This document shows positions 3,454 to 37,573 of a DNA stretch of 37,795 nucleotides, piece after piece; within the stretch, counting starts at the first letter, position 1; each line of letters starts with the position of its first letter. A program made the position numbers and the translations under genes. Origin of the DNA: a virus. The notes below the pieces were generated by a model. It was not told the DNA's origin. It ran no database searches and saw nothing but the letters and a program-made list of their open reading frames with translations. The stretch covers positions 1 through 37,795 of the IMG/VR virus record IMGVR_UViG_3300019132_000022. One strand, 5' to 3'.

Positions 3454-3629
3454 TCGCGCCTTTCGATTTCGTGCGCGTCGAAGAGGTGGAGGCGGCGGTG
3501 GGTGCCGTTGCTCCAGAGTCCGCAGCCGTCCTCCTCCCACCCCGCGTCGCGCAACTCGGCCGCCATCTCCTCGGCATTGGCCTTCAGCCACGGCAACAGC
3601 AGGGCCCCGAGGGTCTCCGGCGCGCTCAC
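3426..3629 (-). CDS. Hypothetical protein (67 aa from GTG 3629)
   Basis: C-terminal part of ORF 3426..4013 (VSAPETLGALLLPWLKANAEEMAAELRDAGWEEDG...). GTG 3629 overlaps the dnaB-like stop 3626-3628 (GTGA). Confidence 0.5.
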   Translation of the reverse strand: MSAPETLGALLLPWLKANAEEMAAELRDAGWEEDGCGLWSNGTHRRLHLFDAHEIERRDATPERPGR

Positions 3630-5104
3630 GTGCCCACCCCGCCGAAGGGCGGTGGGCGCTTGCCCTTGGCAGCATCCCTCGCCGCCCGCGCCTCCTCCTT
3701 GGCTGCCTGTGCGGCATCGGCCCTCTTCTTCGCCTCCGCCGCGAAGTCCACCACCCGTCCTCGCGATCGGTGGAGGAGGCCGAAGCGCCCGCCCTCCTCC
3801 TTCTCGAGCGCGGCGGTGACGCCCTTCGCGCCGCGGGTGTGCTTCACCACCGTGCAGAGCACTTCGCCGGGGAAATTGTCGGTGTCCTCCCAGTTGATGA
3901 GACACGAGCGCATTGCGGCGTCCAGGTAACCGGACTCCTTCAAGTCCTTCATCTTCGGCTGGGTGTTCTCTTCGCCGTCCCGGTTGAGGTGCCAGAGGAC
4001 GATGATGGCGCACTTGTGCCGGGCGCCCAGTGTCGCGAGCGTGTCCATGGCCCGGCCGATGGCGATGTCATAGCGGGCCTTCGCGTCCGTCGTGTAGCGA
4101 ATGCGCAAGCCGTGGTCGATGACGATGAAGCGCACCCCTTCGGCCAGCCACCGCTTGATTTCCTGGAGCACGTCCGGCCAGTCCGCAATGGGGGTGTCGC
4201 TGGCCATGGCCTCCGTGTCCACGTCCGAGGTGTCGTAGACAAAGAGGCGCTCGTTGAGCACCGAGAACGCCTCTTCGCACCACCGCACGTGTTCGTCCTG
4301 CTGGTGCTCATGGAGCCGCGCGAAACCCACCTTGCCGTAGTCCAACCCCAGGCGCCGCGCGGTGAGCCTGTCGAAGGCCCAGCCGGTGCCGTCCTCGAGC
4401 CCGAAGAGGCCGCCCTTGTGGCCCAGGCGGTGCGTCCAGTCCCAGATGCAGTCGGTGATGAGCCCCGTTTTGAAGCCTCCGGAACGGGCAGCCACCACGT
4501 TGAGGTTGTCGACGAAGCCGGGGAACACCTCGGCCAGCCCCTCATGGGGGACGGGCAGGTAGGGCTGCACCTCACCTCGCATGGCCTTCTCCCACCTGTC
4601 CTGCTGCGCGATGACGTCTTTCCCGCCCATTCGCAGGGGTCGGGTGGACTTCACGGCCTGAAGCGCCTGGATGCCCTCCAGGGCCGCGCGAGCGGGCGGG
4701 ACGTTGGGGTCATGCGCCAAGCCGACTACGTGGCGCCCTGCGCCTTCCAGGGCCCTTCTCTGGGCTGCGTCGCGGATGGCCGCCACGTAGGCCGCCACGT
4801 TCCACTCCACGGCAAGGGTCTGGTCCAGGCCCATGAGGTAGGCGATTTGGTTACTTTCGCCCTCAGTGGGTCGTTCCACACCCACCTCCGCCAGCCGCCC
4901 ACGGGCCTTGAGCCGCTCGGGGACGGTGAGCATATCGGACGGCTTGCCCTCTGCGGCCAGGGAGAGCATCACCTCCCACACGTGCCGGTGGCCGGGCCCC
5001 ACGAATTCGGCGGGGGTGAGGTCCGACACGTCCCGGACGGGGAGTTTCTGGGCGAGCACGAGCCCCAGAATCGCCCGCTCGGCTTCCATGGCCTGGAGGC
5101 TCAC
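3626..5104 (-). CDS. dnaB: DnaB-family replicative DNA helicase
   Basis: ORF 3626..5359. N-terminal AERAILGLVL is a DnaB N-domain signature. Walker A-like AARSGGFKTG and Walker B-like RFIVIDHGL are present. Start is GTG 5104 (GTGA overlap with the upstream stop) or ATG 5089. The tail is Lys/Ala-rich. Confidence 0.85.
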   Translation of the reverse strand: MSLQAMEAERAILGLVLAQKLPVRDVSDLTPAEFVGPGHRHVWEVMLSLAAEGKPSDMLTVPERLKARGRLAEVGVERPTEGESNQIAYLMGLDQTLAVEWNVAAYVAAIRDAAQRRALEGAGRHVVGLAHDPNVPPARAALEGIQALQAVKSTRPLRMGGKDVIAQQDRWEKAMRGEVQPYLPVPHEGLAEVFPGFVDNLNVVAARSGGFKTGLITDCIWDWTHRLGHKGGLFGLEDGTGWAFDRLTARRLGLDYGKVGFARLHEHQQDEHVRWCEEAFSVLNERLFVYDTSDVDTEAMASDTPIADWPDVLQEIKRWLAEGVRFIVIDHGLRIRYTTDAKARYDIAIGRAMDTLATLGARHKCAIIVLWHLNRDGEENTQPKMKDLKESGYLDAAMRSCLINWEDTDNFPGEVLCTVVKHTRGAKGVTAALEKEEGGRFGLLHRSRGRVVDFAAEAKKRADAAQAAKEEARAARDAAKGKRPPPFGGVGT

Positions 5105-6156
5105 AGGGCACCTCCCGCCGCCTTCAGCGCCCGGCCTTCCCACTGCGCTCGGCTCGCGAGGAAGTAGCCGAGGCTCCATGGGACGTCCATGCCCGCCCGC
5201 GTCTCGTCGGCGAGGTATTCGGCCCAGGCCGCGTTGAGCAGTTTGGCCTCCGGGCAGTCTTTCTCGAGCTTGGCCAGCGCCCCGAGGTCTCGGTTCATCC
5301 GGGCGGGCTTCCAGCCGTCGTCCACGAAGGTCACGCCTGCCTCGGCGCACCGCTCGCAACGACTGCCCTGAAGGTTCGAGTACAGGCGCTCGGCCTTCGA
5401 CGGCTCCCGGGGCTTCTTGCCTCCGGCGGGTGAGACGAGTTCCAGCGTCGGCCGCTCGCTGACGGGCTCGGCGTGGTCCGTCGCATCGGGCAGGTCATCG
5501 GCAGGTGGTGGGTCATCCACGGCACCACCGCCCAGTTGTTCAGGGATTACTGGCGCGGCGACAGCCGTCGCCTGCGAAGCAGAAACTCCTGCATCCTGCA
5601 TCCTGCATCCTGCATCCTGGGGGCGATACCCTTCGAGGAACCCATCCCCCATGGGTTCCTGGATGGGTTTGGCGAAGGCTTTGGCGAAGGCTTCCAGGAA
5701 GGGTTCCGGGTGCGCCAGAACCTCGCGTAATTGCTCACGAATTCCGGCGAGCGCGCGGTAGAGAAGCGAGCACTCGGGGAGGTCCATTCGGGCCACCTTG
5801 CGCCATGCGGCCACGACATTCGGGCCCGTCGGCGGCTCGTAGCGAGCGGCCTTCCGGAGCCACACCAACCCTGCGCCCCAGTCGGCCTCAACCATCCCTT
5901 CCCGGAAGGGTTGGGCGAACCCATCCCGGAACCCTTCCAGGGTGAGTCCACACAGCCGGGCAGCCTCCTCCTCATGCAGTGGGAAGAGTCCGGGGATGGA
6001 CGTTGTGCGTGGGTTCGTCAGGAGGAAGAGCCACACGGTGCGCCCGTTGGCGTTGAACGAGAGAAAGCGCCGGTCGTGCCAGAGCCGCGTGTCGATGCGG
6101 CGGTAGCGCCGCTCTCCGTGCTCTGGCTTGACCTGCCAGCTGGATTTCTCAGCCAT
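5101..6156 (-). CDS. Replication initiator / replisome-organiser-like protein (351 aa from MAEKSSWQV)
   Basis: ORF 5101..6261 with ATG 6156. It sits immediately upstream of, and is coupled to, the helicase gene. The N-terminus is winged-helix-like (RRIDTRLWHDRRFLSFNANGRTVWLFLLTNP), the linker is low-complexity, and the C-terminal domain looks conserved (WKPARMNRDLGALAKL...WAEYL). Function is inferred from position and architecture. Confidence 0.65.
   Translation of the reverse strand: MAEKSSWQVKPEHGERRYRRIDTRLWHDRRFLSFNANGRTVWLFLLTNPRTTSIPGLFPLHEEEAARLCGLTLEGFRDGFAQPFREGMVEADWGAGLVWLRKAARYEPPTGPNVVAAWRKVARMDLPECSLLYRALAGIREQLREVLAHPEPFLEAFAKAFAKPIQEPMGDGFLEGYRPQDAGCRMQDAGVSASQATAVAAPVIPEQLGGGAVDDPPPADDLPDATDHAEPVSERPTLELVSPAGGKKPREPSKAERLYSNLQGSRCERCAEAGVTFVDDGWKPARMNRDLGALAKLEKDCPEAKLLNAAWAEYLADETRAGMDVPWSLGYFLASRAQWEGRALKAAGGAL
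5588..5691. repeat. Repeat cluster inside the initiator gene: CCTGCAT x4.5, a 9-bp inverted repeat, and TTTGGCGAAGGC x2 (candidate origin iterons)
   Basis: CCTGCAT occurs at 5588, 5595, 5602 and 5609, with a partial copy at 5616-5619. ggaacccat (5637-5645) pairs with atgggttcc (5651-5659). tttggcgaaggc occurs at 5668-5679 and 5680-5691. Confidence 0.8.
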
Positions 6157-6308
6157 AGAAACGACACCGCCCCGCATCGCGCTCTCACACGCGAAGGGGG
6201 CGGCGGACTCCGAGAGGGATGGAGTCGTGAATGGGATACGCGAGGTGAGAGGCTCGCGCAAGCAGGAGGAATATGACGCTAGGGCGACCGCTCGTCAACC
6301 GGCCGCCG

Positions 6309-7566: not shown

Positions 7567-8100
7567 ATGGGATGGCGCATGAGCGAAGCAATGGCGCGGC
7601 TGGGGGAATTCATAGGTGCGCTACGGGGCCCTGAGGCGCGCGCCGTTATGGACGATATCGTGGCCGTTCGCGAGGAGGCGCGCGATGAGGGCCGGAGGGA
7701 GTTGCGCCAGCGCGCCGAGCGCGCGGAGGCAACGCTGCATGTGCGCTCCGTTCAGCTGGCCGAGATGGAGCGCTCGCAGGCGGCAGGGGCTGAGCGCATC
7801 CTGGAGTTGATGGCGAGCCTCCAGCGCGCGGAGGCGGACAACGCGGCGTTGCTGCTGTTCCTCCGCGAGGCGGCCGATGACCTGGAGGACGCGGGATGTC
7901 CGTCGCACGCCGTCAACCCACGCGCCGCCGCCGACGGCGCCCACCCCGGCGCCGCGATGCTGGAGCGGATGCGGGCGCTGGAGGCCATCCGCGACGCGTT
8001 GGTGGCCACGCAGGGGCAGGACCGCCTCTGCGAGGACGAGACCACCGAGACGCTCATGTCGCTGGTCCGTGCCGCCGACGCACTGAGGGTGGCGCCATGA
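7567..8100 (+). CDS. Hypothetical coiled-coil protein, first gene of the rightward arm
   Basis: ORF 7486..8100. In-frame ATGs occur at 7567, 7579 and 7591. 7567 was chosen because of the promoter geometry (leaderless). The protein is Glu/Ala/Arg-rich and helical. Confidence 0.65.
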   Translation: MGWRMSEAMARLGEFIGALRGPEARAVMDDIVAVREEARDEGRRELRQRAERAEATLHVRSVQLAEMERSQAAGAERILELMASLQRAEADNAALLLFLREAADDLEDAGCPSHAVNPRAAADGAHPGAAMLERMRALEAIRDALVATQGQDRLCEDETTETLMSLVRAADALRVAP

Positions 8101-8635: not shown

Positions 8636-8756
8636 TGCATACGGCGCGATGCTGCTTGGAGCGGTGCTTGGACTCGCATGGGGCTTCGTCGCAGGGTGCG
8701 CCTACTCCAACGTCCTCCGACGGCGTGTCGGACCGGGCCGTAGGATGAAGCCATGA
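8628..8756 (+). CDS. Possible small membrane protein (42 aa)
   Basis: GTG 8628, within ORF 8448..8756. Hydrophobic core AMLLGAVLGLAWGFVAGCAY. Its stop overlaps the ATG of the next gene. The start is uncertain. Confidence 0.35.
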   Translation: MNDAYGAMLLGAVLGLAWGFVAGCAYSNVLRRRVGPGRRMKP

Positions 8757-9727
8757 GTCTCTCGCCCGAGGACGCGAAGAAGATAGGCGGGTCGGACGTG
8801 GCCGCCATCGTCGGCGTGAGCCCATACGCTGGCCCGCTATCGGTCTGGTGCCGCATCGTCCACGGTGCGGACTCGCCGGACAACGCGCACACGGGGCGGG
8901 GGCGGCGCCTAGAGCCCGTCGTCCTGGACTGGTACCGCGAGACGACGGGGCATCTCGTCGAGGAGGGTGTGCGACTCCGAGACCCGCGACGCCCCTATGT
9001 GCGTGGGTCGCTGGACGCCATCGCCTCGAATGGCCCATGGAATCCACGCGTGGTGGAGGTGAAGACGGCGAATGCCTCGCAGATGGGATACTGGGGCGAC
9101 GAGGGGACAGACGCCATCCCACCGTGGTACCTCGCCCAGGTGCACTTCTACCTCGGCTTCGGCCGCGAGACGGGCGTGGTGAGTGACGACGTGGCCGACG
9201 TCCCGGCGCTCATCGCCGGGGACTTCCGCCTGTACCACGTGCGGCACGACGCGGAGGTGTACGCCGCGCTCTCGGAGGCCGTTGACCGCTTCTGGGTGGA
9301 CCATGTGCTCCCGCGCAGGCCGCCCGAGCCCACGCCCCTGCCCCGCGACCTGGAGAGCGTCTCCCGGGCCTTCCGCCGCTCCGAGGGTGGCGCGGTGGAC
9401 TTCGCCAGCCTCCCGCCGGAGACACAGGTGGTGCTCGAGGAGTATCTCCGTGCCTGGGAGGAGGAGTCAGCCGCGGCGGACCGGCGGGCCCTTTGGGAGG
9501 CGCGGACGAAGTTGGCGCTGGGCTCCGTTCCTGCCGTGCGCGGGCTGCCGCTCGGTTTTTCGAGCCTGTCCTGGGGCGAGCAGGGCGGGAAGACGCAGTG
9601 GAAGCGCGTGGCCGAGGCGCTGGCGAAGAATCACGGACTGGAGAAGCAACTTCGGGCGCTGGTCGCCGAGAATACCGGGGAGGCCTCACGGCCCTTCACG
9701 CCACGCAAAACGAGGAAGAAGACATGA
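8753..9727 (+). CDS. YqaJ-like (lambda Exo-type, PD-(D/E)xK) recombination exonuclease
   Basis: GGSDVAAIVGVSPYAGPLSVW, RGRRLEPVVLDWY and GSLDAI...VVEVKT match the YqaJ viral recombinase motifs. Paired with recT two genes downstream. Confidence 0.85.
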   Translation: MSLSPEDAKKIGGSDVAAIVGVSPYAGPLSVWCRIVHGADSPDNAHTGRGRRLEPVVLDWYRETTGHLVEEGVRLRDPRRPYVRGSLDAIASNGPWNPRVVEVKTANASQMGYWGDEGTDAIPPWYLAQVHFYLGFGRETGVVSDDVADVPALIAGDFRLYHVRHDAEVYAALSEAVDRFWVDHVLPRRPPEPTPLPRDLESVSRAFRRSEGGAVDFASLPPETQVVLEEYLRAWEEESAAADRRALWEARTKLALGSVPAVRGLPLGFSSLSWGEQGGKTQWKRVAEALAKNHGLEKQLRALVAENTGEASRPFTPRKTRKKT

Positions 9728-10074
9728 TTGGACAGTCATACGGGGCGACCGGCATCACGGTCTGGGAGATAGGCCGAGATAAGTGGCACGCGGAGGCGCG
9801 CTTCTTTGATGACGGCTTCGCGGAGTTGGGGTCGAGCGAGGGCGTCATTCGGACGCGGTACGTCGGCCCGCTGGCGCGCGTGGTGGACATCGTGAAGGCG
9901 GATGCTGAGCGTATGGGCATCCGGTGGTCTAACCCCGCCCACCATGCGCCGTGCATCTACTACGAGGGCGACGGAGAGAACCCCGCCCACCCGGCGCCGC
10001 AGGGGTGGCGAACGCGCATATCCGCTGAGTGCGAGCGGCTGGGGTGGTGCAACATCTACAAGGAGCAGGCATGA
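9724..10074 (+). CDS. Hypothetical protein (116 aa)
   Basis: ATG 9724 is in an ATGA overlap, within ORF 9493..10074. Confidence 0.7.
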   Translation: MIGQSYGATGITVWEIGRDKWHAEARFFDDGFAELGSSEGVIRTRYVGPLARVVDIVKADAERMGIRWSNPAHHAPCIYYEGDGENPAHPAPQGWRTRISAECERLGWCNIYKEQA

Positions 10075-10991
10075 GCACGACGATTCAGGGACAGAAGCAG
10101 CAGGCACTGAGCGTAACGCCCGTGGACAAGATGATGCTGAGCCTCATGGGGGAATTCGACCGGCGGGAGGCGCGGCTGGAGAACCTCCTCCCCCGTGACA
10201 TGCCGGTGGAGCGCTTCAAGGAGTCCGTGCGCTTCGCCCTGGCGGCTACCCCGGCGCTCCTGAAGTGCGACCCGGGCTCGGTGATGCTCTCCGTGATGAA
10301 GGCGGCGAAGCTCGGCATCGACGTGGCGGCCGGGCCGCTCGGGCACGGTGCGCTCGTGCCATTCGGTGCCGATTGCACCTTCGTGCCCATGTTCAAGGGC
10401 CTCGTCATGCTGGCCGTCACAGCAGGCGTGGTGCGGGACATGAACCCCGTGCTCGTCTACGAGCGGGACCACTTCGTGCCCACGGAGGGCGATGAGCCTC
10501 GCGTGGACCACAGGCCCTATGTGCCGAAGAACGCGAAGGACTCTCGAGGCGCCATCATCGCGGCCTACACCCGCGTCACGTTCCCGGATGGCTCCCGGGC
10601 CATCAAGGGGGTGCTCTTCGCGGACGACATCGAGCGCATCGCCAATTCCTCCAGCGGACGCAACACCCCGTGGAATGGCCCCCACCGCCCGGAAATGGTG
10701 AAGAAGTCCACGGTGAAGAACGCCTTCAAGACGCTGGGCGTGCCGTCCTCGGAACAGGCCAACCGCCTCCGGGATGCGCTGGCCGCCGACATCGAGGCGG
10801 AGGCGCGCGGCGTGGATGAGGAAGCGACGCACGCCGTCACGCCATCGCCCTCCGTGGGCACCGAAGGGCTCAAGGCGTCGCTGAAGACGAAGAAGCCCGC
10901 CACGAGCTCCCCGCCCGATGATGCCGTGACGGAGCCGCTCCACAGCAGCCATCCCGGGGCGGAACCGCCGGAGCCGGGGGCGGAGGGATGA
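10071..10991 (+). CDS. recT: RecT-family single-strand annealing protein
   Basis: ATG 10071 is in an ATGA overlap. GALVPFGADCTFVPMFKGLVMLAVTAGVVRDMNPVLVYERDHF...RGAIIAAYTRVTFPDGS...EMVKKSTVKNAFKTL follows the RecT pattern. Confidence 0.85.
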   Translation: MSTTIQGQKQQALSVTPVDKMMLSLMGEFDRREARLENLLPRDMPVERFKESVRFALAATPALLKCDPGSVMLSVMKAAKLGIDVAAGPLGHGALVPFGADCTFVPMFKGLVMLAVTAGVVRDMNPVLVYERDHFVPTEGDEPRVDHRPYVPKNAKDSRGAIIAAYTRVTFPDGSRAIKGVLFADDIERIANSSSGRNTPWNGPHRPEMVKKSTVKNAFKTLGVPSSEQANRLRDALAADIEAEARGVDEEATHAVTPSPSVGTEGLKASLKTKKPATSSPPDDAVTEPLHSSHPGAEPPEPGAEG

Positions 10992-18483: not shown

Positions 18484-18659
18484 GGAAGGGGAGATGCTAC
18501 CGCTGCGGACGTCGGAAGCCGCGGGCGCGGTTGGTTCCGATGCCATGTCATCATCCTCTGGACAGGGCATGGAGATGCGAGGAATGGATGTCCTGCGTCG
18601 CGGCGTTGCGACGCGAGCGCGATCGATATGACCGGCGCGCGGCGGGCGTCCGCCGATGA
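18480..18659 (+). CDS. Unlisted 59-aa Zn-ribbon-like ORF (MRKGRCYRCGRRKPRARLVPMPCHHPLDRAWRCEEWMSC...)
   Basis: Below the ORF-track size cut-off. ATG 18480 overlaps the TerS-like stop (ATGA), and its TGA 18657-18659 overlaps the ATG of the GNAT gene (ATGA). Contains CxxC...CHH...C. Confidence 0.55.
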   Translation: MRKGRCYRCGRRKPRARLVPMPCHHPLDRAWRCEEWMSCVAALRRERDRYDRRAAGVRR

Positions 18660-19102
18660 CCCCTCTCGCTCGCCACGGTCCCCTGCTGCTGGTGCACGCC
18701 GGGCCGGAGGTGCACGGCTTCGTCGTGGACACGTGGTGCAAATCCTACGAGCCCGCGGCGTGCGCCATGGCGGGCCTGCCGAAGCCGGAGAGCCTCCCGC
18801 CGGGCTTCCGCCGCCTGCTATGCGCTGGGCTGTACGCTCGCGTAAAGGCGACGCTCGGCAGGGCGCGGGTGCTCGCCGCCGTGGCCGAGGAGGCGCCCGC
18901 CGTCGTCCTGGGTTACGTCGTCTGCGAGGAGGCGCCCGCCGGGACGGTGGTGCACTACGTCTATGTGGGCGCTACCGTCCGACGCCAGGGCGTCGCAGCC
19001 GCGCTCCTTGAGGCGTGCAGCGCCCGGGGCGGGGCGTATACTCACCACACCTCGGCTGGGGCTCCGCTCGCGCGGCGCTTCGGCCTCGTCTTCTCGCCGT
19101 AA
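18656..19102 (+). CDS. GNAT-family N-acetyltransferase-like protein
   Basis: VHYVYVGATVRRQGVAAALLE fits the GNAT motif A (R/Q-x-x-G-x-A/G), and the size (148 aa) is right. Confidence 0.65.
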   Translation: MTPLARHGPLLLVHAGPEVHGFVVDTWCKSYEPAACAMAGLPKPESLPPGFRRLLCAGLYARVKATLGRARVLAAVAEEAPAVVLGYVVCEEAPAGTVVHYVYVGATVRRQGVAAALLEACSARGGAYTHHTSAGAPLARRFGLVFSP

Positions 19103-19341: not shown

Positions 19342-19569
19342 GTGGCGACCATCCCGCCCGTGATGGTGCGCGGCGCGCAGGTGGGCGACGTCATCGCCCA
19401 TGGACCGGCGCCGCTTCAGGCGTCCCCAGACGCCGCCGTGATGCCGCGCTACGCCGTCTCGGACGGCTGCTGGACCGTCGGCATCGGCGCCGCGCCGCAC
19501 GCCCTGGGCGCGCTGCCTGACGCCTGCCTCACCTGTGCGGCGAAGCGGAAGCAGGACGCGCAGGGGTGA
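19342..19569 (+). CDS. Hypothetical protein (75 aa, GTG start)
   Basis: ORF track. Its stop overlaps the terL GTG (GTGA). Confidence 0.55.
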   Translation: MATIPPVMVRGAQVGDVIAHGPAPLQASPDAAVMPRYAVSDGCWTVGIGAAPHALGALPDACLTCAAKRKQDAQG

Positions 19570-21038
19570 GCGCCGGGGTGCACAGCGTTTTCGTGGAGCT
19601 GGCCGGGCGCTTCCACCGGCCGAAGTTCCATGACGGGCCGCCCGCGCGGCTCCAGGACTTCCTCGGCACTCTCTTCCAGGTGCAGCGGGAAGTCCTGGCG
19701 TGTCCCGCGCGCAAGGTGGCGGCGCTGTGCACCCGGCGAGCTGGGAAAACCACCATGGTCCCCGCCGCGCTCTTCCAGGCGGCGGAGGAGAACCCGGGCT
19801 GCGTCGTCATGTTCATGGGGCGCACTCGCGAGCGTGCCCGGGAACTCGCCTGGGAGAACCTGAAGGCGGCAAACGACGAGTACCGGCTCGGATACTCCGC
19901 CAACGACACCCGACTGACGCTGCGACACCCGAAGAACGGGGCGGAAATCCGCCTACGCGGCGCGGATGATATCCGGGAGTTGGAGAAGTACCGCGGCGAC
20001 AAGCTCGCCTTCGCCGTCATCGACGAAGCCCAGTCCTTCGCGGAGGCCATTCTCCGAAAGCTCATCGAGGACGTGCTCTGGCCCGCTCTCCTCGACGTCT
20101 CCGGCCGCCTGCTGTTGCTGGGCACCCCGGGCTACATCTGCCAGGGCCTATGGTACGAAATCACCCGCAACGAGGACGCGAAGAGCCGGGCAGAGCGCGC
20201 GCAGGGCTGGCACGTGGTGGAGTGGAGCGGCCTGGACAACCCGAGCCTCAACCACAAGGGCCAGCGCCTCTCGGACCTCTTCCGGGAGGAGTTGGAAGCG
20301 CTCGAGCGTGACCCGGCGAAGGGGCCCCGGCACCCCAGCGTCATCCGCGAGTATCGGGGCCGCTGGTGCCAGGACTTGAAGGGCCTCTATTACGCCTTCG
20401 ACCCGGAGCGGAACCTCTACGACGGCACCTTGCCTGATGGGCACCATTGGTCCTATGTCATGGGGGTGGACATCGGGAAGGCGTACGCCCGCGTTACCTG
20501 GGCTTTCTCCGAGACCCACCCCGTCATGTACGAGGTGGATGGGCTCAAGGCGCACGACACCAACGCCAACCGCTGGCGGGAGCACACCCGCGACGGGCAG
20601 CGCCGCTTCCCGGTGGAGGCGACCCCCGTGGACTACGGCGGGCTGGGCGTGGGCATCATCGAGGCGTGGCAGGAGGACGGGCTTCCCGTGGAGCCCGCCG
20701 AGAAGCAGAACAAGGACGCCTTCGTGATGCTCATCAACGCGGAGTTGGAGGCGGGCCGCATCAAGGCACTGAAGGGCGGAGCTCTGGCCGGGGAGTGGGC
20801 CACCCTGCCGAGAGACCCTGACAGCCCCCCAGGCAAGCCGCCTCAGCCAAAACCGGGGTTTGACGACCACTCCAGCGATGCGGCGTTGTACGGGGCCCGC
20901 AGGGCGCTCCAGCGGCGTGGGCAGGAGGACAAGCCCGCCCCTCGGCCCGGGAGTGCAGAAGCGAAGCGGGCGGCCGTGCTACAAGAGCAGGAGGCGTTTC
21001 TGAGGAGGCAGCGCACATGGACGGACGAGGCGTGGTGA
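19566..21038 (+). CDS. terL: Terminase large subunit
   Basis: Walker A TRRAGKTT, Walker B FAVIDEAQ, nuclease-domain-like GVDIGKAY and DDHSSDAALY. 490 aa. Confidence 0.9.
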   Translation: MSAGVHSVFVELAGRFHRPKFHDGPPARLQDFLGTLFQVQREVLACPARKVAALCTRRAGKTTMVPAALFQAAEENPGCVVMFMGRTRERARELAWENLKAANDEYRLGYSANDTRLTLRHPKNGAEIRLRGADDIRELEKYRGDKLAFAVIDEAQSFAEAILRKLIEDVLWPALLDVSGRLLLLGTPGYICQGLWYEITRNEDAKSRAERAQGWHVVEWSGLDNPSLNHKGQRLSDLFREELEALERDPAKGPRHPSVIREYRGRWCQDLKGLYYAFDPERNLYDGTLPDGHHWSYVMGVDIGKAYARVTWAFSETHPVMYEVDGLKAHDTNANRWREHTRDGQRRFPVEATPVDYGGLGVGIIEAWQEDGLPVEPAEKQNKDAFVMLINAELEAGRIKALKGGALAGEWATLPRDPDSPPGKPPQPKPGFDDHSSDAALYGARRALQRRGQEDKPAPRPGSAEAKRAAVLQEQEAFLRRQRTWTDEAW

Positions 21039-34291: not shown

Positions 34292-37200
34292 ATGACCTGG
34301 GGCCCTTCGTCTTTCTGGGTTATTCTCGGACCCATGGCCCAGGTTTTCGACCCCAACAGCGGACAGTGGATTGAGGTGAAAGACGAGGAGGTGACGGCCC
34401 TCGTTGGCGCCGGGAAGGCGTTCCTCCCCAAGGGGACCGTGGCGGTGGTGGACGCCCGGGGCGTCGCGGGCGAGGTACCGGCCGAGGACGCACCCCAGGC
34501 ATTCGCCAACGGCTACCGCTACCGCCCGCCCGCCGAGGTACAGGCCGACCAGGAGCGAGAGCGCTACGCGGACCGGCCGCTCGCCGCTGGCATCGCCGGG
34601 GCGGCCCGTGGCATCACCCTTGGGCTCTCCGACGTCGCGGCCACCCGCACCGGCCTCGTGGCGCCGGAGACGCTCAAGGGCCTGGAGGACTACAACCAGG
34701 AGGCCAGCGTCGGCGGCGAGGTGCTCGGCACCGGCGCGGCCCTCCTCGCCACGGCTGGCGCGGCTACCCCGGCGGCCCTCGTGGAGCGTGGCGGCGCGAC
34801 GCTGGGGGCGCTCGCCGTGGAGAAGGTCGGCGGGGGCGCGGTGGTGCGCGGAGCGGTGAAGGGCGGCGTTGAAGGCGGGCTGTACGGCCTCGGCCGCGCC
34901 ATCACCGACGACGCCCAGAACCGGGACCCGCTCACCGCTGAGAAGGCGATGGCCTCCACCATGAGTGGCGCCCTCTTCGGCGCGGGGGCGGGAGCCCTCT
35001 TCGGTCGCTTGGGGGACAGGACCCGGGGCGGGCGGGTGGCGTCAGGTGCGGCAGATGACGCCACCCCGAGCCCCGCCAGCATCCTGGATGACGACGTGAC
35101 GCAGGCCGATACGGTGGTGACGGGCGGGGCGGTTCCGGGAACCGGCGGGAACCAGCGGAACCAGTTCCGGGAACCGGCGGGAACCAGCGGAACTGGGGCC
35201 ACCCCATCCAGTGGGGGCATGGCTGGGGCGATCGCGGACGGCGCGCTCTCGGCCGCCACACCGGTGAAGGACGCCATTGAGGCCAACCCCGGGGTGTTCC
35301 GTCGGGTGTTCGCCGCGCTGGACGTCGAGTTCCCCGATGCGGACGAGTGGGTGCGCCGAGGGTTGGACATCAAGAAGAAGGGCGCGCGCATCCTCCGGGA
35401 AAAGGACTTGCTGGAAGAGGCCCCGCGCGCCCTTCGCTCGGACCCACGGTTCGCCCAAGTGAAGAACGGCGGGGACGCGGCCCGCCTCATCCGAACGAAG
35501 CTCGAGGAGTCCGGCGGGGAGGTGCAGCGCGCCGCCGCCCGCCTGGACGAGATGGTGTCCCCCTCCGAGCAGCTCGACGTGGCCGCCTTCGCTGCGCGTG
35601 CCGAACGGGAACTGGTGGCCCCCCTCGCCCGTGGCACGGTGGATGAGCGCCGTGCCGCCGCCCGACTCCGAGAGGAACTGGAGGCCATGCTCGACGGGGT
35701 GCCGGAGACGCCCGCCACCCTCCCCGCTCGGAAGGCCGGAGTGGTGGTGGAGGTGCCGCTCTCCGAGTTGGACGACATCCCCGCGAAGGCCAATCGCAAC
35801 GGGGTGCTCGCCAACGCCCTGAAGGGCATGGACGACGGGAAGGATTTGGGGGCCATCAAGGTAGTCCAGGGCGGGAATGGGCTCCGCGAGCTCGCCGGCG
35901 GCAACCACCGGCTCGTGGCGGCCCGGCAGCGGGGCGCGAAGTCCATCAAGGTGCTCTTCGACAGCGAAGAGGCCGCCGCCATCGTCCAGCGCAAGCGCGG
36001 CTCGAGCGTCTTCCCGGACGCTCCGGCCCCAATGGACGCTCCGGGCTGGACACCCGCGCCCCCGCCGGCCGGCCGAAAGCTCCTCACCTTCGCCCAGGCG
36101 GAGGACCTCAAGCGGCGCCTGGACAAGTCGCTCCGGTGGGACTCCACAACACCCAACGAGGTACGCGAGCAACTCCGGCAGCTGCGTGGCCTGCTCAACC
36201 GGACGCAGGAGGAGACGGCTGAACGCGTCTCCAAGACGCTCGGGGCGGACACCTTCGCGGAGTGGAAGCGCGCGAAGGCTCTTTACGGGCAGATGGCGGA
36301 GCTGGACAACATCGCCACGGAACGCCTGGGGGACGCAAAGAACGCCAACCGCCTCTTCAGCCTCACGGACAATCTCGCCGGGGCGGCGGGCTTCGCGGTG
36401 GGCGGGGGCCTCAACCCCGTTGGACTGGCGCTCTCCCTGGGTTCGGCCCTACTCAACAAGTGGGGCCGGGAAAACCTCCCCTTCGTCATGGCGCGGGCCA
36501 TGGGGGAATTCGACAATACCCCGGGGGCGCGCAAGGCGGCCCAGGCCCTCGTCAACCGCCTCAAGGGCGCCGGGCCGGACGCCGGAGCGGCGCCGGCTGG
36601 AGTTCCGCCAACTGCACCGACCGACCCCGGTGGCGCCGGAGCCACGCCCACAGCCGCAGTCCATGGCGCGCTACTCTCTATGCTCCAGCGCGCGGCCCAG
36701 TCGGGCCCCCGGGAAGCGTGGGTGGCCCACACCGTCCTGTCCGGCTCCATGGAGTACCGACAGGCGATGGAGGCCCGCGGGCTCGCCCAGTACACCCCGG
36801 AGGCGGACGCCGAGGGTGCGCGCCGGGCTGGTACCGCCTCCCGCGTGGAGAAGGCCGCCGCGGACTTCGACGCCCGGGCGGACGCCGCAGCGAAGGGACT
36901 CTTCTCCGGGAAGCGAGGAAGGGTGACGCCCACGGAGAGTTCCACAGCCCTGGCCAAGGCCGAGCAGATGCGCCGGGCCGCCAAGGAGCCCGAGGCAGTG
37001 GTGTCCCGCGTGGCCGAGCGCCTTGCGGACGTGGGCGCGGACACGCCGGGGCTCGCCACGGAGATGCAGGCCACCGCCCAGCGCGCGCACGCCTTCCTCG
37101 CTTCCAAGGCGCCAGCCCGGCCCACCTCCCCCCTGGGGGACGTGCCCGCCCTTCGTCTCCCGTGGCGCCCCTCCGCCGCCGAAACCGCGAAGTGGGCCGC

Positions 37201-37573
37201 CTACGTGCGCGCCGTGGAGGACCCCGCAAGCGTGCTCGAGGATGCGGCTGGCGGGCGACTTACGCCGGAGGGCATTGAAGCCCTGGAGGCTGTCTACCCC
37301 TCGCTCCTGGCGAACCTGCGCGGGCGGGTGCTGGGGATGGTGGCGGAGCACCCCCGGCGCCTGGACTACCAGCAGCGTCTCTCCCTCGGCCTGCTCCTCG
37401 GCCTGGACCTGGATGAGTCCATGGCTCCGGGGGTAGTGGCCTCCCTCCAGCAGATGCACCAGCAGGAGCCGGAGAAGCCGCAGGGCCGCCCCGAGGCCAG
37501 CAGCAGCCGTACACAGAAGCGTCTGGCCTCGGAGTTTTCTCCGGCGGACGGCCTCACGCAGCGAGGCGCATAG
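34292..37573 (+). CDS. Giant virion-associated protein with a central ParB/Srx-like domain (alternative start ATG 34334)
   Basis: 1,093-aa ORF. The N-terminal segments are Gly/Ala-rich and hydrophobic. VEVPLSELDD...LRELAGGNHRLVAARQRGAKSIKVLF (nt 35732-35962) resembles the ParB N-terminal nuclease-like fold. Its position matches that of a podovirus internal core protein. Confidence 0.75.
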   Translation: MTWGPSSFWVILGPMAQVFDPNSGQWIEVKDEEVTALVGAGKAFLPKGTVAVVDARGVAGEVPAEDAPQAFANGYRYRPPAEVQADQERERYADRPLAAGIAGAARGITLGLSDVAATRTGLVAPETLKGLEDYNQEASVGGEVLGTGAALLATAGAATPAALVERGGATLGALAVEKVGGGAVVRGAVKGGVEGGLYGLGRAITDDAQNRDPLTAEKAMASTMSGALFGAGAGALFGRLGDRTRGGRVASGAADDATPSPASILDDDVTQADTVVTGGAVPGTGGNQRNQFREPAGTSGTGATPSSGGMAGAIADGALSAATPVKDAIEANPGVFRRVFAALDVEFPDADEWVRRGLDIKKKGARILREKDLLEEAPRALRSDPRFAQVKNGGDAARLIRTKLEESGGEVQRAAARLDEMVSPSEQLDVAAFAARAERELVAPLARGTVDERRAAARLREELEAMLDGVPETPATLPARKAGVVVEVPLSELDDIPAKANRNGVLANALKGMDDGKDLGAIKVVQGGNGLRELAGGNHRLVAARQRGAKSIKVLFDSEEAAAIVQRKRGSSVFPDAPAPMDAPGWTPAPPPAGRKLLTFAQAEDLKRRLDKSLRWDSTTPNEVREQLRQLRGLLNRTQEETAERVSKTLGADTFAEWKRAKALYGQMAELDNIATERLGDAKNANRLFSLTDNLAGAAGFAVGGGLNPVGLALSLGSALLNKWGRENLPFVMARAMGEFDNTPGARKAAQALVNRLKGAGPDAGAAPAGVPPTAPTDPGGAGATPTAAVHGALLSMLQRAAQSGPREAWVAHTVLSGSMEYRQAMEARGLAQYTPEADAEGARRAGTASRVEKAAADFDARADAAAKGLFSGKRGRVTPTESSTALAKAEQMRRAAKEPEAVVSRVAERLADVGADTPGLATEMQATAQRAHAFLASKAPARPTSPLGDVPALRLPWRPSAAETAKWAAYVRAVEDPASVLEDAAGGRLTPEGIEALEAVYPSLLANLRGRVLGMVAEHPRRLDYQQRLSLGLLLGLDLDESMAPGVVASLQQMHQQEPEKPQGRPEASSSRTQKRLASEFSPADGLTQRGA
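35132..35195 (+). repeat. Tandem 32-bp direct duplication (30/32 identical) carrying GTTCCGGGAAC palindromes, inside the giant ORF
   Basis: gttccgggaaccggcgggaaccagcggaac occurs at 35132-35161 and again at 35164-35193. The period of 32 is not a multiple of 3, so the copies are read as VPGTGGNQRNQ and then FREPAGTSGTG. Confidence 0.9.

Follow-up and report, generated by a model that had tools for sequence, protein, structure and literature searches.

A perfect 32-bp tandem repeat inside a virion-module gene

The DNA analysed here, called the window below, is the whole 37,795-nucleotide (nt) stretch of the viral record IMGVR_UViG_3300019132_000022, and we focused on a tandem repeat at 35132-35193 which lies inside an open reading frame (ORF) of 1093 amino acids (aa) on the plus strand (34292..37573). 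The sequence GTTCCGGGAACCGGCGGGAACCAGCGGAAC is found at 35132-35161 and again at 35164-35193, with 100% identity and a period of 32 bp (Tandem Repeats Finder, TRF, score 124). A sequence-only reading of the window had pointed out a perfect duplication of this period carrying palindromes, and both direct reading and TRF confirmed it. A second TRF row inside the repeat gives a 10-nt sub-period, CGGGAACCAG being present 5.3 times.

Copy 1 (35132..35163) is the 32-bp unit and is composed of GTTCC-G-GGAACC, GGC, G-GGAACC, AGC, GGAACC and A. Copy 2 (35164..35193) has the same 30 nt as copy 1, and its last word is GGAACT (35189-35194). Three GGAACC words had been claimed for each copy, which is right for copy 1 but not for copy 2, where two GGAACC words are found in addition to GGAACT. 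An inverted word pair, as read from the sequence, forms the palindrome CGGTTCC-G-GGAACCG at 35130..35144; a shorter one, GTTCC-G-GGAAC, is present in copy 2 (35164-35174) and a third, CGGAAC-CA-GTTCCG (35156-35169), is created by the junction of the copies. The direct words (35138..35194, plus strand) are GGAACC at 35138, 35148, 35157, 35170 and 35180 and GGAAC(T) at 35189, that is to say six GGAAC(C) words with spacings of 10, 9, 13, 10 and 9. Both orientations occur in the block, GTTCC at 35132 and 35164 facing GGAACC. With 8 GGAAC/GTTCC words in 70 nt it is the sole such cluster in the window, and sequences simulated with an order-2 Markov model contained a maximum of 3-5 of these words per 70 nt.

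The folding of the repeat region is not unusual (z=-0.68 as RNA, z=-1.55 as DNA) and an Rfam scan of the window gave no match. On reading the sequence, no slippery heptamer was seen in either frame and no significant downstream structure was found, and programmed frameshifting was not retained as an explanation.

The repeat encodes part of a disordered linker and is read in two frames

The 1093-aa ORF, whose conserved start is probably the ATG at 34334, encodes a mostly alpha-helical protein of unknown function and belongs to the virion module, downstream of an SU10-type adaptor gene. In this module the gene of the terminase large subunit (19566-21038) is followed by a portal-sized ORF of 629 aa and a capsid-sized ORF of 402 aa, then by an ORF of 227 aa (PF24175, SU10_adaptor, in relatives), by ORFs of 1026, 294 and 643 aa and by the 1093-aa gene. 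These neighbours point to the virion module of a short-tailed phage. Since the ejection proteins of SU10 are encoded after the tail genes (PMC9509320), it is a reasonable guess, from gene position alone, that the 1093-aa protein is an ejected or internal virion protein.

We found 21 relatives of this protein by a word-indexed search, and a profile search gave 8128 cluster representatives at E<=1e-3, with 1773 at E<=1e-30. The protein has no match in Pfam or PHROG, its family is absent from 50,697 deposited phage genomes (searched by DNA and by tblastn) and a profile search of the PDB with the family returned noise only. Whole-protein fold searches recognised nothing but an insert of the ParB/Srx fold, described below, and uncharacterised phage proteins. 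Glycine-rich hydrophobic stretches were observed in the family. In 12/12 aligned members (the window, the closest relative and 10 more distant homologues) the gene is one ORF with both halves present.

An AlphaFold model of the protein built from 22 sequences has a mean pLDDT of 67 and is mostly helical, with an N-terminal domain that is confidently modelled (pLDDT about 90 for residues 20-100). The repeat lies in the coding sequence of a linker (35006..35248, plus strand, residues about 239-319) where the 12-sequence alignment shows its lowest conservation and most of its gaps; in the model, pLDDT is below 50 for residues 239-319 and residues 246-309 are without secondary structure. The repeat is thus predicted to encode part of a disordered and hypervariable linker, so that two frames of the same DNA are both tolerated, any frame there giving an acceptable Gly/Thr/Ser/Pro/Asn/Gln-rich peptide. 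The G+C content at third codon positions (GC3) of the gene is 0.87, and the GGA, GTT and GAA codons of the repeat are unusual there.

The two copies are read in different frames, as VPGTGGNQRNQ and FREPAGTSGT (residues 281-301 of the ORF), and the junction peptide encoded across them is NQFREPAGTSGTGATPSSGG. When the copy number was varied in silico, 1, 3 and 4 copies led to stops at residues 318, 335 and 350, respectively, and the ORF remained open with 2 or 5 copies. The frame arithmetic of the sequence-only reading, according to which the copies are in different frames and the gain or loss of a single copy breaks the ORF, is therefore correct. As a period of 32 bp is not divisible by 3, the 800-residue C-terminal part stays in frame with two copies but not with one, three or four, and selection on the protein consequently pins the copy number.

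No 1- or 3-copy variant was found in searches of viral, metagenome or genome contigs. A strict unit pattern had 0 matches in viral contigs, 0 in genome contigs and one in metagenome contigs, on an unrelated contig (L003, see below). A protein search for further close relatives in genome contigs gave 0 matches, and a homology search with the linker region alone returned nothing, probably being swamped by low-complexity words. The lineage of the window is represented in the collections by two genomes, the window itself and L001, both with two copies.

The duplication is shared with a sister genome and has evolved in concert

The protein closest to the 1093-aa protein, P0002, has 89% aa identity to it, and its gene is at locus L001, a JGI contig of 38.4 kb. 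The two genes share 84.7% DNA identity, with no indel within 300 nt on either side of the repeat. L001 contains the same tandem duplication in the same place, perfect over 65 nt, and its unit is CAGTTCCGGGAACCGCAGGGAACCAGCGGAAC (CAGTTCC...GGAAC). Where the window unit has GGC that of L001 has GCA, a change of two adjacent bases (GC->CA) which is found in both copies of each genome. In addition, one edge base of the repeat is lost in window copy 1 relative to L001 (GCG instead of GCA, a synonymous change).

As the flanks are collinear and a single-copy ancestor would have been out of frame, the common ancestor already had two copies. By our own arithmetic, the probability that 30 nt stay identical under 15% divergence is 0.85^30, about 0.007 per genome. 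These comparisons show that the copies were homogenised after the two genomes diverged, either through gene conversion or through loss followed by re-duplication, because independent copies would neither stay identical nor gain the same two changes. Such a concerted change shows that the repeat turns over.

The presence of the duplication in the diverged sequence of L001 means that it is neither an assembly artefact nor a recent event, both of which had been considered in the sequence-only reading. For an artefact, only the general risk attached to short repeats in metagenome assemblies can be put forward; the duplication was assembled twice independently, from different sources, and the two assemblies differ in the sequence of the unit and have diverged in the flanks; moreover, only the two-copy state keeps the conserved 1093-aa ORF open, so that this explanation is hardly credible. 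As for age, a duplication that also exists in a genome 15% diverged is not recent. Nor is it a fusion of two reading frames, another earlier proposal, since the 10 more distant homologues plus the sister protein are all encoded by single ORFs with both halves. The duplication may have compensated an old frameshift. We looked for a trace of such an event in the linker, which is unalignable, and its three-frame translations showed no recognisable similarity to the linkers of relatives.

The simulated copy numbers and the turnover of the repeat also bear on a phase-variable switch, in which slippage between 1, 2 and 3 copies would toggle the full-length protein or yield an N-terminal form of roughly 320 residues, the heterogeneity being under selection. 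Stops at residues 318-350 with 1, 3 and 4 copies, an open frame with 2 and 5, the concerted change and the RecT and YqaJ proteins encoded by the window speak for a switch of this kind, and contingency loci likewise have a non-triplet unit in an ORF whose copy number switches the frame. Known contingency tracts, however, are much longer runs of short units, whereas here there are only two copies of a long 32-nt unit, no long hypermutable tract, and the sequence is that of a binding-site array, not of a simple sequence repeat. The two genomes known both represent the ON state, there are no truncated relatives of the 1093-aa protein among 5.8 billion clusters, and the gene is one ORF in all 12 aligned members, with 8128 cluster representatives, which argues that the full-length protein is needed. 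We thus regard the switch as decidedly improbable.

Comparison of the two genomes revealed a mosaic: they are collinear over the structural module, with 80-85% DNA identity, and have only short patches in common in the early/replication region. The two genes downstream of the 1076-aa gene of L001 are not represented in the window. Since only the structural module is collinear between the window and L001, the block travels with the virion gene and not with the replication module.

Arrays of the same words accompany replicase genes in other phages

Viral contigs were searched with a looser pattern taken from the window, GTTCCGGGAACCNNNGGGAACC. This pattern matched 17 viral loci, but the same pattern reversed, which has the same composition and repeat structure, matched 0. 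A larger array, of which the pattern forms the head, is present in the matched loci; in it GGTTCCGGGAACC, the invariant head of the arrays in L010-L026, is followed by 2-4 further GGGAACC words at 10-11 nt; more GGAACC words plus a GGTTCC block are found within about 150 nt upstream. The words of the array are nearly all such words in each matched locus. With a broader pattern of three GGGAACC words we obtained 37 loci, and in four further sequence families (GC 0.41-0.70) an AAA_25 ORF, in some cases with PriCT_2, has its 3' end at 20-370 nt from the words. In L010-L026 and L033-L056 both the word and its spacing are those of the window.

The ORF that ends at or overlaps the array encodes a replication protein in 10/10 scanned loci, with Prim-Pol plus AAA_25, AAA_25 alone or DnaB-N plus AAA_25; in L017 and L003 it likewise contains Prim-Pol and/or AAA_25. 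The replicase of L013 ends with a winged-helix-like segment. L012 is the one exception, with two words plus GGAAC at 7735-7756 in a head-module ORF after the portal and S49 protease genes; it is plausible that this match is a chance hit, or else it is another orphan block in a structural module. Considered together, GGGAACC arrays in a 10-11-nt phase with an inverted GGTTCC partner mark the 3' ends of AAA_25/Prim-Pol/PriCT_2 genes in many phage contigs of 41%-71% GC which are unrelated to one another. The C-termini of the array-linked replicases fall into several groups which are mutually unalignable despite the constant word.

Several accessory features were also observed beside these arrays. 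DnaA boxes (TTATCCACA), perfect or with one mismatch, are located at +25 to +46 from the arrays of L019 (about 3473), L023 and L026, and these loci contain no other such box or hardly any. Several arrays are also flanked by 40-mers rich in AT (GC 0.25-0.35), the GC of the loci being 0.54-0.65. In L003, the unrelated 1.5-kb metagenome contig found with the strict pattern, the words are at the 3' end of an AAA_25 ORF. Nine GTTCCC/GGAAC(C) words are grouped there within 130 nt (1085-1215) in inverted blocks, and the last codons of this ORF (EPPGTSGTGAPEGG) contain the same words in the same frame as window copy 2. Words overlap the end of the replicase ORF in L003, L014, L024, L034 and L050, which are precedents for translated iterons.

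The origins of Staphylococcus aureus pathogenicity islands (SaPIs) contain six to twelve penta- or hexanucleotide iterons directly downstream of rep, in both orientations around an AT-rich centre, and these are bound by the winged-helix C-terminal domain of Rep (PMC9371898). The origin of pRN1 is similarly placed just downstream of its prim-pol/helicase gene (PMC4234260). By analogy with these systems, the arrays found in other phages are probably iteron replication origins, to which the replicase would bind by its winged-helix C-terminus.

Long perfect 10-nt arrays, (GGGAACCCAA)n and (GGGAACCATC)n, exist in large low-GC phage contigs, namely in L027 and L030-L032 (GC about 0.40, contigs of 82-153 kb) and in L029 (GC 0.28), with no recognised replicase nearby in the fetched stretch. 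The position of arrays at contig ends was considered as a clue to packaging and was dropped, locus ends not being reliable marks of contig ends.

The window block resembles the head of these arrays

The 32-bp unit of the window corresponds to the head of an array, with its inverted pair and two additional direct words. Aligned with the array of L026, it matches at 33/35 positions and shares the alternation of GGN and AGN spacers; the complete 62-nt array of the window matches L011 at 46/53, and the junction of the copies matches L020. A profile built from the arrays of other phages matches 35130-35160 (E=2.4e-6) and 35164-35190 (E=5.4e-6), these values not being independent of the search pattern. 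The resemblance to iterons is suggested rather by the number and consistent context of the matches, plus those which extend outside the pattern. L003 encodes EPPGTSGTGAP where the window encodes EPAGTSGTGATP; the similarity between the two ends after about 34 nt, with no longer shared segment.

L026 (by YqaJ and RecT) and L016 (by terminase, portal and capsid proteins) are distant relatives of the window, with 24-30% identity in these proteins, which means that the wider lineage does include a replication module having an origin of this kind. The sequence-only reading had suggested a cis-acting protein-binding site in the gene. In so far as the unit matches iteron arrays located at primase-helicase genes, this suggestion fits our results, but not in the form of a parS or packaging site, as discussed in the next section.

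The ParB/Srx-fold insert is unrelated to the repeat

A ParB-like domain had been noticed downstream of the repeat. Pfam did not detect any ParB match in the 1093-aa protein, even at E<=1. A profile of residues 474-578 derived from seven relatives, compared with the PDB, matched the Myxococcus ParB with E=0.01, and the alignment sets DGNHRLxAAR (the DGNHR motif) against the GERR box of ParB. In an AlphaFold model of this insert (35711..36025, plus strand, residues about 474-578) pLDDT is 70, and the 50 best Foldseek matches are without exception members of the ParB/Srx superfamily (best E=7.5e-4), with structures of ParB, Noc, KorB, PadC, sulfiredoxin, SerK and SbnI. They span about 75-90 residues (about 484-565) of the ParB N-terminal domain; whole-protein fold matches to ParB over longer spans have an rmsd of 18 A. 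The fold searches gave no match to a helix-turn-helix or dimerisation domain, the following helices having had no domain-level test.

The models thus indicate that the insert is the nucleotide-binding ParB/Srx domain only: the ParB-like fold announced by the sequence-only reading is supported by the PDB profile and by Foldseek, but a full ParB is not, since only its nucleotide-binding part is represented. With ParB, Noc, KorB, sulfiredoxin and SerK/SbnI it shares the fold at residues about 484-565. In contrast to these proteins, it is here an optional insert in a large helical protein, escapes recognition by Pfam and is unconnected to the repeat. Indeed, only part of the family contains it: it is present in P0001-P0005, P0007 and P0012 and replaced by a short unrelated stretch in P0006 and P0008-P0011. 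Moreover, P0003-P0005, P0007 and P0012 have the insert and yet lack the DNA repeat, so that insert and repeat do not co-occur.

ParB recognises parS through a separate helix-turn-helix domain. The ParB/Srx fold at residues about 474-578 and the palindromes of the block would speak for a parS-like or packaging site to which the ParB-like domain encoded by the gene itself binds. The insert, however, corresponds to the N-terminal nucleotide-binding fold only, no match to the parS-binding helix-turn-helix appeared, insert and repeat are distributed differently among P0003-P0012 as just described, and elsewhere the word arrays adjoin primase-helicase and not ParB genes. This earlier suggestion is therefore unsupported, and we consider it very improbable.

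A probable orphan iteron block in linker-coding DNA

We favour, as moderately probable, a reading in which an origin-type iteron block is lodged in linker-coding DNA, was duplicated before the two genomes split, is frame-locked at two copies and is kept homogeneous. The block would have entered the linker by recombination with the iteron origin of a relative; alternatively, it might be the leftover of an exchanged replication module. It would then have been duplicated by slippage or annealing, possibly by means of the phage's own RecT/YqaJ pair. It would now be an orphan and not the origin of this phage, and may still bind an iteron-binding replicase from another element in the same cell.

Several points weigh against this reading. 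The loci used for comparison were retrieved by means of a window-derived pattern, so that the E-values given above are not independent, and the origin status of the arrays in other phages is deduced from their layout. In more distant relatives, with an aa identity of about 65% at most, the 15-23 kb of sequence retrieved contained neither the repeat nor any word cluster. No cognate replicase was found in the window or L001 by tblastn of 13 array-linked replicases or by a hidden Markov model of the C-terminal winged helix. In the window, no Prim-Pol/AAA_25 replicase with a winged-helix tail is present, and Pfam finds only a DnaB-type helicase. The origin accessories are missing as well: there is no AT-rich stretch near the block (no 40-mer up to 300 nt away has a GC below 0.575), no DnaA box was found near it, and the upstream GGTTCC block is absent. 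Furthermore, the block is inside ORF 34292-37573, about 30 kb from the helicase gene (3626-5359), and not downstream of a replicase. In favour of the reading, the words are better conserved than the spacers between the window and L001 (differences at 1/46 and 5/21 positions, respectively, Fisher p=0.01), which is only suggestive of a constraint on the words, the two copies being non-independent. Finally, a 10-nt slippage product could have hit the same word by coincidence, which is unlikely. Without a cognate replicase, origin accessories or a link to a replication module, the block has to be considered as an orphan iteron block whose binding is putative.

The coincidence just mentioned is the core of another explanation, in which a GGGAACC stretch was amplified by plain slippage, in 10-nt and then 32-nt steps, the likeness to iterons being fortuitous and the DNA having no role of its own. 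The repeat is in fact hierarchical, with a 10-nt sub-period within the 32-nt period; it lies in a hypervariable and disordered linker, is missing from more distant relatives and has no cognate binding protein encoded, and another perfect repeat with a non-triplet unit is found in the window, in coding sequence of low complexity (5587-5619). However, slippage does not account for the word, the inverted pair, the spacing and the GGN/AGN spacers matching natural arrays (33/35 with L026, and L020 across the junction), for a control pattern with 0 loci versus 17, for words more conserved than spacers, or for GGA, GTT and GAA codons that are unusual at a GC3 of 0.87. We consider this explanation unlikely.

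Equally unlikely, in our opinion, is a stronger form of the orphan block, in which the phage keeps the iterons in order to bind the AAA_25/Prim-Pol initiator of a co-resident element (a satellite, a plasmid-prophage or a competing phage). Binding would titrate or handcuff the initiator and so act as an incompatibility weapon, or it would borrow the initiator for replication inside a late gene. The non-triplet period would then serve as a safeguard, the loss of one block destroying an essential virion protein.

The orphan iteron block that we favour can be compared with known systems. In the pri-rep-ori of SaPIs and other phage-inducible chromosomal islands (PICIs), as in the window block, short words of 5-6 nt are in phase and in both orientations (PMC9371898). 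The comparison loci resemble pri-rep-ori in having the array directly 3' of a primase-helicase ORF with a winged-helix C-terminus, often with an AT-rich stretch beside it; the window block, in contrast, is inside a coding sequence of the virion module, is not beside a replicase and has no AT-rich centre, and the genome is without such a replicase.

The iterons of the lambda origin are in gene O and are translated as the linker between two domains of the O protein. A repeat array is likewise embedded here in, and translated as, an interdomain linker which tolerates a sequence dictated by the function of the DNA. In lambda, however, the host gene is that of the initiator which binds the array, whereas here it is a gene of the structural module and no cognate initiator is encoded. 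Plasmids can contain extra iteron clusters, such as incA of P1 downstream of repA, which bind the initiator away from the origin and affect replication or incompatibility by titration or handcuffing. Such clusters share a replicon with their Rep, unlike the window block, for which Rep would come from another element.

If the block is bound in vivo, it would represent origin-type iterons outside any replication module, hidden in the linker of a structural gene and locked by the reading frame, and would give a phage a compact means of contact with the machinery by which other mobile elements replicate. Even if it is inert, the repeat offers a clear case, taken from nature, of concerted evolution in a coding repeat that has two copies and is constrained by the reading frame, and GGGAACC marks probable origins beside AAA_25/Prim-Pol genes at 41%-71% GC, which is usable for origin prediction in uncultivated phages.

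Other genes and repeats of the window

The only helicase of the window is of the DnaB type (3626..5359, minus strand); it lacks the C-terminal winged-helix region and there is no word array at its 3' end. A phage recombination pair is formed by a YqaJ-type exonuclease (8753-9727, plus strand) and a RecT annealing protein (10029-10991, plus strand), and these could drive duplication and homogenisation between homologies of 30 nt. The remaining early ORFs have no Pfam match. This is also the case for a minus-strand ORF of 386 aa (5101-6261), located just upstream of the helicase gene, which contains several repeats: a perfect heptanucleotide repeat of TCCTGCA (4.7 copies, 5587-5619), a 12-nt repeat (2.2 copies, 5668-5693) and an inverted repeat, GGAACCCAT-N5-ATGGGTTCC, with 9-nt arms at about 5636-5658 (5630-5660). 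The repeats of 5587-5710 are translated as a low-complexity stretch (...FAKAFAKPIQEPMGDGFLEGYRPQDAGCRMQDAG...) and have no DNA-level counterpart in L001. This region could be the phage's own origin inside an initiator gene, in the style of lambda, or a second frame-sensitive repeat.

These repeats raise the question of whether the block at 35132-35193 is a working cis element of the phage's own replication, either a second origin or another cis region, acting with an initiator such as the 386-aa product. The word cluster is unique in the genome, its words are conserved in both genomes, and the 5587-5710 repeats with their inverted repeat resemble an origin inside an initiator gene. Nevertheless, the early/replication regions of the window and L001 are largely unrelated although both genomes contain the block, and neither an AT-rich region nor a DnaA box lies beside it. 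We could detect no similarity between the putative initiator and the winged-helix domains of array-linked replicases, nor does it match Pfam, and the inverted repeat at 5630-5660 shows the opposite arrangement of words. An element of this type is consequently improbable.

Lastly, a small ORF for a GNAT-type acetyltransferase (18656-19102; Pfam E=4.6e-5, below the curated cut-off) was observed just upstream of the terminase region.

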